Origin: a virus
Lineage: Duplodnaviria; Heunggongvirae; Uroviricota; Caudoviricetes
Strand: one strand, 5' to 3'
Virus record (IMG/VR): IMGVR_UViG_2579778702_000004
Span: 1 to 6,563 of that record
DNA: 6,563 nt
In this document: one piece after another, positions 3,138 to 3,600 of the stretch
How positions within the stretch are numbered: position 1 is the first letter of the stretch
Layout of the letters: every line of letters starts with the position of its first letter
Program-made: the position numbers and the translations under genes
The notes under the pieces: model-generated
What the model was told of the DNA's origin: nothing
What the model saw: the letters and a program-made list of their open reading frames with translations, nothing else
The model's database searches: none

Positions 3138-3464
3138 CTACCCCAGATGAGTAATCCGAAGTTCATCCATACCACAGGTCCTGGCTATTCTGTTGTACTC
3201 CTGAACAAGAGCAAATAATTCTGAATTAGCAACCATGAACTCATCGCAAACCCTCTGTATAGCATCACTATTCAGAATAATAACGTCTCTTCCCGAAAGA
3301 CGATCAGGAGTACAGAACAAAACTGTCAAACGGCTGAAGGCCTTTGCTCGTGCTGCATTGACTATATCAATACGCTGCCTAAGGATGAAACACCCCGACG
3401 CCTCATCAATATTCACTCTACCCACACCATATGAATGATAAATATTTAATGCTGAAAAAACCAT
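3138..3464 (-). CDS. Hypothetical protein of unknown function in the AT-rich cargo island at the stx-equivalent position
   Basis: Open frame 3138-3494 (118 codons), but the codon at 3492-3494 is GTG directly after an in-frame TAA with no Shine-Dalgarno. First ATG is 3462-3464, giving ~108 aa (MVFSALNIYHSYGVGRVNIDEASGCFILRQRIDIVNAARAKAF...ITHLG). TAG stop at 3138-3140. Low-GC segment, same orientation as the late operon. No family recognised from memory. Confidence 0.4.
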   Translation of the reverse strand: MVFSALNIYHSYGVGRVNIDEASGCFILRQRIDIVNAARAKAFSRLTVLFCTPDRLSGRDVIILNSDAIQRVCDEFMVANSELFALVQEYNRIARTCGMDELRITHLG

Positions 3465-3494
3465 TAGACCGTATAACAAACACTCAATCAACAC

Positions 3495-3600
3495 TTAACA
3501 GAACTTTTATTTTTGACAAACATATAATATTTTCAACAATATCCTGAGCCAGGTATATTTCAGTATAAGGCTCTGCCGGAAGGAATCTGGAAGAATGAAT
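3495..3600 (-). promoter_or_regulatory. AT-rich upstream region of the cargo ORF; possible cargo promoter (not resolved)
   Basis: Very AT-rich stretch between tRNA-Arg(UCU) and the cargo ORF with several -35/-10-like hexamers on the minus strand (e.g. TTGAAA ... AAAAAT, TTGTCA). No single promoter can be assigned by eye. Confidence 0.2.

Follow-up and report, generated by a model that had tools for sequence, protein, structure and literature searches.

A conserved small gene at the Shiga toxin position of lambdoid prophages in Escherichia coli

The late region of a lambdoid prophage (Caudoviricetes) was analysed in a window of 6,563 nt, which corresponds to positions 1-6,563 of the IMG/VR record IMGVR_UViG_2579778702_000004 and in which all features of relevance are located on the minus strand. 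Between three phage tRNA genes and a homologue of nanS-p the window carries a low-GC island with a gene for a 92-aa protein, the main subject here, followed by a mini-gene for a DUF3927 peptide (Table 1). A first-pass annotation made from the letters of the sequence had drawn attention to this place as the position of the Shiga toxin (Stx) genes in Stx-converting phages, held here by an unassigned cargo gene. This observation was confirmed and its interpretation is supported by the analysis reported below; the role in fitness, virulence or defence suggested there for such cargo is conjectural. The novelty lies in the abundance of the gene, its under-annotation, a corrected gene model and a partial linkage to Psr-type regulators, and not in a demonstrated mechanism.

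The island was delimited by BLAST alignment to the Stx2a phage LC567818, which has the order Q, hypothetical gene, methylase, tRNA-Met, tRNA-Arg, tRNA-Arg, stx2A, stx2B, yjhS/nanS-p and holin. From 5724 down to 3594 (Q, methylase and the three tRNA genes) the two sequences are 94.7% identical; the alignment ends 8 nt past argO and restarts at 2934, from where it continues with 72% identity through nanS-p. In the same position the window holds 659 bp (3593-2935) and the Stx2a phage 1368 bp with stx2A and stx2B. Within a margin of a few bases, island and stxAB are alleles of each other, and the slot is the stx slot. With the breakpoints at 3594 and 2934, the postulated backbone of an Stx-converting phage with cargo between argO and nanS-p was borne out, as was the low GC content of the island (41.3% for 2935-3593 compared to 52.2% for the rest of the window; 31.9% for 3417-3601). 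In a first megablast search 282 phage records, mostly of Stx phages, aligned solely downstream of about position 2950. Three features of a moron at the PR' site were found, namely a location downstream of Q and PR'-tR', upstream of the lysis cassette and on the late strand, an insertion or replacement bounded by backbone homology, and a base composition unlike that of the flanking phage genes. Tree et al. 2014 (PMC4104026) described this position as a moron insertion site downstream of PR', with moron coding sequences that differ among the Sakai prophages and with small RNAs (sRNAs) placed between the moron and a conserved downstream open reading frame (ORF); the general architecture with varied cargo is therefore already established.

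The ORF at 3138-3494 can be read as 118 aa from GTG 3494 or as 108 aa from ATG 3464, and these were the lengths given in the first-pass annotation. In a search of 5.8 billion proteins, near-identical copies were found to be called at 108, 117 or 118 aa, and diverged copies of 55-63% identity at 92 aa beginning at the residue that corresponds to V27 of the 118-aa form. Three E. coli alleles that are about 60% identical, a (window), b (L004) and c (L090, L007), share the sequence GTG-AAT-ATT-GAT-GA at this start, have the same length and contain no indels, the frame being retained at a nucleotide identity of 68-70%. The numbers of identical positions among the 92 codons in the three allele pairs were 68-73, 70-72 and 49-53 for the first, second and third codon position, respectively, and dN/dS for a versus b was 0.26 at a dS of about 1.1. 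The 92-codon core was intact in 82 of 82 allele-a loci, with six of its ten variable sites at third positions. Allele c has a good Shine-Dalgarno sequence, AGGAG, just upstream of the GTG and is annotated by RefSeq in precisely the 92-aa form; allele a combines the GTG start with a weak Shine-Dalgarno-like GGTG/GGG. In the 78-nt extension (3417-3494), five of the eight sites variable among the 82 loci are at codon position 2, a 1-nt deletion in one locus breaks the frame of the extension and not that of the core, and GTG 3494 reads GTA in 74 of the 82. In L004 the extension is not in frame with the core, and in a variant form, P0017, it is replaced after insertion of an insertion sequence (IS) element. 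The gene is therefore placed at 3416-3138, with GTG as start codon and 92 aa, on the basis of a conserved core and an extension that varies like non-coding DNA. Judged from these sequence comparisons, 3138-3416 is a real protein-coding gene under purifying selection, and the leader 3417-3494 is most likely non-coding. The 108- and 118-aa models were rejected as artefacts of an open leader by the polymorphism pattern, the frameshift variant and the allele comparison, so that of the earlier ORF the conserved gene stood and the length did not. Codon usage linked to the upstream tRNAs was set aside as uninformative: the codons which these read (AGA/AGG/CGA/CGG, 7 of 10 Arg; AUA, 3 of 9 Ile) are present, and in their use the gene does not stand out from Q or the holin gene.

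Table 1. Features of the 6,563-nt window in the order of transcription of the minus strand
Feature	Position	Strand	Remarks
DUF968/NinG-like gene	6500-5913	-	
Antiterminator Q	5910-5515	-	PF06530
tR'-like intrinsic terminator	5446-5426	-	About 70 nt past Q; terminator scan: AAACCCGCCGCGAGCGGGTTT then T-run
Small winged-helix-like ORF	5392-5102	-	
N6/N4 DNA methyltransferase	4950-3901	-	
Phage tRNA cluster, ileZ-like/argN-like/argO-like	3851-3602	-	All three found by ARAGORN and Rfam
tRNA-Ile2-like, ileZ-like, anticodon CAT	3851-3776	-	RefSeq name: tRNA-Ile
tRNA-Arg(UCG), argN-like	3768-3692	-	RefSeq name: tRNA-Arg
tRNA-Arg(UCU), argO-like	3678-3602	-	RefSeq name: tRNA-Arg
AT-rich spacer between tRNA-Arg(UCU) and gene cassette	3601-3495	-	32% GC; left island junction at about 3593/3594
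Low-GC cargo island, 659 bp	3593-2935	-	Breakpoints from alignment to Stx2a phage LC567818
5' leader	3494-3417	-	N-terminal extension of the 108/118-aa forms in the first-pass annotation; most likely non-coding
92-aa gene (10.4 kDa, pI 5.7)	3416-3138	-	GTG 3416-3414, TAG 3140-3138; PHROG 2873
DUF3927 mini-ORF, 28 aa, hydrophobic	3057-2971	-	MSVLADGVLVAGVVVIAFPLLKKKTPDC; PF13064
STnc100/PasD-type prophage sRNA	2905-2715	-	Rfam RF02076, 138 bits, E 2.6e-31
nanS-p homologue, split into two ORFs	2492-1716 and 1738-641	-	DUF1737+SASA and DUF6645, respectively
P21-type holin	568-275	-	

The family to which the 92-aa protein belongs is small. With HMMER, a full scan of 1.84 billion representatives returned 20 clusters only, and a profile search of the 5.8-billion set returned 40 proteins. 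Its members are confined to prophages of Enterobacterales (E. coli/Shigella, Citrobacter, Enterobacter, Salmonella, Serratia, Morganella and Xenorhabdus) and are named "hypothetical protein" throughout in their source records. Since all homologues are separate proteins of 91-110 aa, without a Pfam domain and with no fusion among them, the gene is not a remnant of a larger one. Homologues down to 20% identity retain the length and the conserved residues, of which R23, N64 and N75 are invariant and C9, L12, E66, V71 and A78 nearly so. E. coli and Shigella carry four alleles; a, b and c are about 60% identical to each other, and d is about 31% identical to them. Scans against Pfam, NCBIfam and PADLOC, which also covered 9-20 family members, gave no significant match for the window protein; with PADLOC it had no match at all, and one distant member had a single weak one (E 0.009). 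The protein matched phrog_2873 directly at an E-value of 5.6e-58, with residues 1-92 aligned to profile positions 17-108, and nine of nine family members tested matched PHROG 2873, eight of nine also the related PHROG 4827. Both PHROGs are catalogued with function unknown, so that the earlier statement that no family could be assigned holds for Pfam, NCBIfam and PADLOC and not for PHROG. The profile of PHROG 2873 differs from the present gene model in its 108 positions, which thus include a 16-residue extension judged here to be untranslated. No paper on this gene was found in literature searches.

Of 5426 complete E. coli genomes, 1187 (22%) carry the cassette with allele a, at 1349 places, 975 of them with at least 99% identity; allele b is present in 80 complete genomes. 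Among 50,697 phage records searched by tblastn, a single one carries the gene, the phage mEp460_ev081, in which it is unannotated. This distribution fits an accessory gene of the prophage or lysogen better than a core lytic function. The record in question (LR597641.1; L001 4001-4843) is an 'ev' (evolved) derivative of mEp460 whose Q-to-lysis region is 98.9% identical to E. coli prophage sequence, a similarity that suggests acquisition of the module from a resident prophage by recombination. Among the GTDB species representatives, the gene was found only in E. coli, in Citrobacter braakii and on a 2.7-kb contig binned into a metagenome-assembled genome of Bacillota, probably a misbinned E. coli phage fragment. 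In the RefSeq records inspected for alleles a and b (e.g. L002 4510-5008, L003 4510-5053 and the H62-H85 loci), the 92-aa gene is omitted; those for allele a have only the tRNA and DUF3927 annotated, and those for allele b only the upstream AraC gene. Allele c, at 60% identity, is present in RefSeq as a "hypothetical protein". The gap in gene calling looks consistent for alleles a and b, and the GTG start together with the weak Shine-Dalgarno sequence is probably its cause. Neither a match to a known family, nor truncation of a known gene, nor a lack of conservation, the outcomes that had been named as speaking against a cargo gene, was found.

The genes surrounding the 92-aa gene vary among alleles and hosts. 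At 80 allele-a loci from IMG/VR, the order is tRNA-Ile2-like, tRNA-Arg(UCU), the 92-aa ORF and DUF3927, followed by nanS-p and holin or by the holin directly. Allele b is found in the order methylase, AraC, ORF and nanS-p, and allele c in the order methylase, ORF, with or without TerB-like and DUF3927 genes, and Phage_holin_8, an AraC gene preceding the ORF at three of the loci seen. Homologues of 20-43% identity in Citrobacter (tRNA-Thr ... ORF, TerB-like, holin, endolysin), Morganella (Q, methylase, ORF, holin, lysozyme) and Serratia (Q, ORF, two small ORFs, lysozyme) are located in the same Q-to-holin interval. Allele d follows a tRNA-Thr gene beside a fimbrial operon, and the Xenorhabdus member, in a Mu-like tail region, is the sole examined member outside the interval from Q, methylase or tRNA to the lysis genes. 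The gene occurs with at least four types of Q (PF06530, PF03589, PF06323 and DUF1133) and with unrelated types of holin (P21 class II, Phage_holin_8 and others), and this variety of neighbours gives it the character of an independent module confined to a fixed interval.

A model of the 92-aa protein calculated with AlphaFold2 (predicted local distance difference test 85-88) contains helices at residues 3-33 and 50-81, and the predicted fold is an antiparallel two-helix coiled coil with a conserved TPDR-containing loop between the helices. The whole protein is acidic with an isoelectric point (pI) of 5.7, and helix 1 is basic (pI 9.0). No catalytic motif, signal peptide or membrane segment was found in the 92 aa. 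The remote homology and structure checks that had been proposed for the product gave no significant profile match in the PDB and no informative structural match of the predicted fold, and prefoldin-type and other antiparallel coiled-coil hairpins are to be named among the closest known systems. In two profile searches of the PDB, chains of GapR (UPF0335) were on top with E-values of 0.05-0.4, the best being 0.05-0.14, over helix 1 only; membership in this group was rejected, since these values are not significant and Pfam DUF2312 gave no match.

The first-pass annotation had counted one ORF in the island; the 92-aa gene is there, and a second gene is present as well. The 28-aa ORF matched PF13064 with an E-value of 8.6e-16 and 58.1 bits (cut-off 25), and the identical sequence is annotated by RefSeq as a DUF3927 family protein. 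As the match spans profile positions 26-53 only, its N-terminus is shortened. An extra T at position 3100 of the window, absent from 73 of 82 related loci, reduces the peptide from a 43-aa form (PF13064 positions 7-53) to the 28-aa form. DUF3927 is the next gene after the 92-aa gene in nearly all allele-a loci.

Signals for expression were searched around the gene. A putative promoter region had been proposed at 3495-3600, and this proposal did not hold: promoter-like hexamers were not above chance there (5 found compared to 2.4 ± 1.8 expected across 2400-4000), and the stretch is unconserved between alleles (43-54% identity). Conservation is restricted to about 45 nt directly upstream of GTG 3416, where allele a is 62-71% identical to b and c compared to about 47% further upstream. 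This conserved leader contains a -10-like box, TATCAT in a (3440-3435) and c and TATAAT in b, from which autonomous expression in the lysogen appears possible. No RNA family was detected by Rfam at E ≤ 1 in 3138-3600, and no clear terminator follows the 92-aa gene. Owing to the position on the late strand downstream of tR', Q-antiterminated late transcription is the default inference, as for stx2.

Genes for Psr-like AraC regulators adjoin two of the alleles. Allele b is located 90 nt downstream of a gene for a 241-aa YdeO/GadX-like AraC protein at all intact allele-b loci that were examined and in 79 of the 80 complete genomes with this allele, and at L090, L091 and L102 the gene upstream of allele c codes for an AraC protein of 242 aa. 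The AraC genes of b and c are 64% identical to each other, which is near the divergence of the ORF alleles (60%), and share 78% DNA identity over the helix-turn-helix half with the psr loci of O157, which are present twice in each O157 genome. The roles of PsrA and PsrB in regulating GAD acid resistance and the type III secretion system (T3SS) have been characterised (review PMC10877973). The parallel divergence of AraC gene and ORF suggests a two-gene module. Adjoining AraC genes are missing from allele a (1187 genomes) and from 18 of 19 viral loci of allele c, and the O157 psr-type prophage inspected contains AraC, tRNAs, TerB and DUF3927 and lacks the 92-aa gene. The adjacency is explained equally well by independent neighbouring slots (methylase or AraC, tRNAs, ORF, TerB, DUF3927); in the two alleles concerned it is suggestive yet looks modular.

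Psr-like AraC genes were also observed in the methylase or pre-tRNA slot of the Q-to-lysis interval of several prophage lineages (L004 3969-4694, L090 5142-5870, L129 3596-4309), with at least three alleles that are about 64-78% related and a homologue in 806 of 5426 genomes. Between the AraC gene and allele b, the P0017 variant has an IS element; this IS3-family insertion (L093-L097, about 4760-5990 in L093) provides the downstream ORF with a new, unrelated N-terminal extension and gives rise to the 119-aa P0017 form on 20 or more contigs. Two further candidates were rejected. The first was that the AT-rich spacer retains part of a former AraC gene: tblastn of the AraC proteins gave no match in the window, and the resemblance to the AraC-bearing allele b is gradually lost further than about 45-75 nt upstream of the GTG. 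Membership in the ANR (Aar-like) family (Santiago et al. 2014, 2016), which comprises proteins of less than 10 kDa with three short helices, no beta structure and the signature A10, E14, A22, W26, A29, W43 and R47 (PMC4983702), was dismissed as the 92-aa protein has no Trp and two long helices, so that the signature is absent, and a mass of 10.4 kDa. Both are small helical enteric proteins that oligomerise (here by prediction), and alleles b and c lie directly downstream of an AraC-family regulator of the virulence type; they differ in helix number and Trp content.

Taken together, the explanation that we favour, with moderate confidence, is that a 92-aa cytoplasmic coiled-coil protein and the DUF3927 peptide constitute a moron at the PR' site, allelic with stxAB, whose protein acts by binding a partner. 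The 92-aa gene and the gene of the 28-aa membrane peptide would form the 659-bp low-GC moron at the PR' insertion site. On induction the 92-aa gene would be transcribed with the Q-antiterminated late message, as is stx2, and the conserved 45-nt leader with its -10-like box may add low autonomous expression in the lysogen. As the protein lacks a catalytic motif, a signal peptide and a membrane segment, a stoichiometric mode of action is most likely, in which it would form oligomers and bind to a protein of host or phage, and its role may be that of a small regulator or adaptor of benefit to the prophage or the lysogen rather than that of a toxin or an enzyme. The stxAB moron is its closest counterpart in position: both are found in one slot bounded by recombination, with Q, methylase and ileZ-argN-argO ahead of it and an STnc100-type sRNA, nanS-p and holin behind, with a GC content below that of the backbone, on the late strand downstream of tR'. 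The 92-aa protein differs from Shiga toxin in that it is unrelated in sequence or fold and has no signal peptide.

Several other explanations were weighed against this partner-binding moron. Unlikely, in our view, is a conserved phage function of the late operon in late gene expression or lysis timing, in which the protein would be made after Q antitermination and act on a phage component before lysis. The invariable location on the late strand downstream of tR' would agree with such a function, and members of 20-26% identity keep this place in apparently complete prophages of Morganella, as the sole gene between methylase and holin, and of Serratia, where it lies between Q and lysis and is followed by two small uncharacterised ORFs and then the lysozyme gene. 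However, stx1 and stx2 show that true morons keep a fixed position too, the unrelated holins and at least four Q types alongside the gene leave no specific partner apparent, and Stx phages as well as nearly all of the 50,697 sequenced phages do without it. Slightly more doubtful is an anti-activator or co-regulator partner of a prophage Psr-type AraC protein (YdeO/GadX-like), which in analogy to Aar/ANR would tune acid resistance and type III secretion. The parallel divergence of AraC genes and ORF alleles (64% and 60%), the resemblance to the O157 psr loci and a small oligomerising helical protein as in the ANR mode of action are in its favour, but the many loci of alleles a and c without AraC and the psr-type prophage without the 92-aa gene fit independent neighbouring modules, and the ANR signature, with its Trp residues, is lacking. 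A similarly doubtful extension is that the family represents an unrecognised class of small coiled-coil regulators which bind Psr/YdeO/GadX-type AraC proteins or another master regulator of the host. If so, acid resistance or virulence expression would be rewired in about one fifth of E. coli strains, and an ANR-like mode of action would have evolved independently, in the stx slot.

Prophage moron slots often carry defence genes, and a superinfection-exclusion or anti-phage factor, possibly acting together with the DUF3927 membrane peptide, was considered on this ground; the gene is small, AT-rich and restricted to prophages, and the membrane peptide adjoins allele a. We regard this as improbable, given that no PADLOC model matches, that DUF3927 and the gene each occur without the other (the gene without DUF3927 in L004, L101 and Morganella) and that a dN/dS of 0.26 gives no sign of an arms race. 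A role of the GapR type, as a small protein that binds DNA or associates with the nucleoid, to which the top rank of GapR chains and the basic helix 1 would point, is very improbable: the match does not reach significance, the whole protein is acidic, and DUF2312 is not matched. Just as remote, and already largely refuted, is the absence of any functional protein, i.e. a chance or decaying frame in AT-rich regulatory DNA or an RNA element. The omission from the inspected RefSeq records of alleles a and b and the poor initiation signals of allele a could be read in this way, but they are opposed by the indel-free frame, the excess of third-position changes, the low dN/dS, the retention of length and residues at 20% identity, the 82 intact loci, the good Shine-Dalgarno sequence and RefSeq annotation of allele c and the lack of an Rfam match.

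The moron site between Q and lysis carries Shiga toxin, the Psr regulators of acid resistance and T3SS, nanS-p esterases and regulatory sRNAs. That 22% of complete E. coli genomes, including those of clinical, avian and bovine isolates, carry the 92-aa gene in precisely the place of stx thus marks a concrete gap in prophage biology, and a function of any kind in regulating the host, excluding phages or controlling lysis would touch a large share of E. coli strains. The corrected 92-aa GTG model would allow the gene to be tracked in genomes and in Ribo-seq and proteomic data.

Further observations concern the flanks of the island. The STnc100-type sRNA is full-length, adjoins the right island junction and belongs to the backbone, not to the cargo, its region being common to Stx phages (context from Zhu et al. 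2026). Convergent terminators lie past the island at 2745-2726 (-) and 2686-2707 (+), and the one on the plus strand, a strong intrinsic terminator (GCCCGCGTCTCCCAGCGCGGGC + T-run), faces the sRNA. This arrangement is the layout of the convergent sRNA pair described by Tree et al. 2014 between moron coding sequence and nanS-p; for the plus-strand partner, no match to AgvB or AsxR was obtained with Rfam. The two ORFs of nanS-p (DUF1737-SASA-DUF6645) overlap, and compared to NZ_OZ040035, which has an intact 618-aa gene and is otherwise identical to the window from 4722 to 2582, single bases are missing from the window near 1774 and 1750, so that the split gene is either a frameshifted pseudogene or the result of a sequencing error. 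Upstream, the region of the tR'-like terminator (5426-5512, minus strand) gave a weak Trp_leader-like Rfam match (E 0.75) and could mark a short PR'-tR' transcript of the StxS type.
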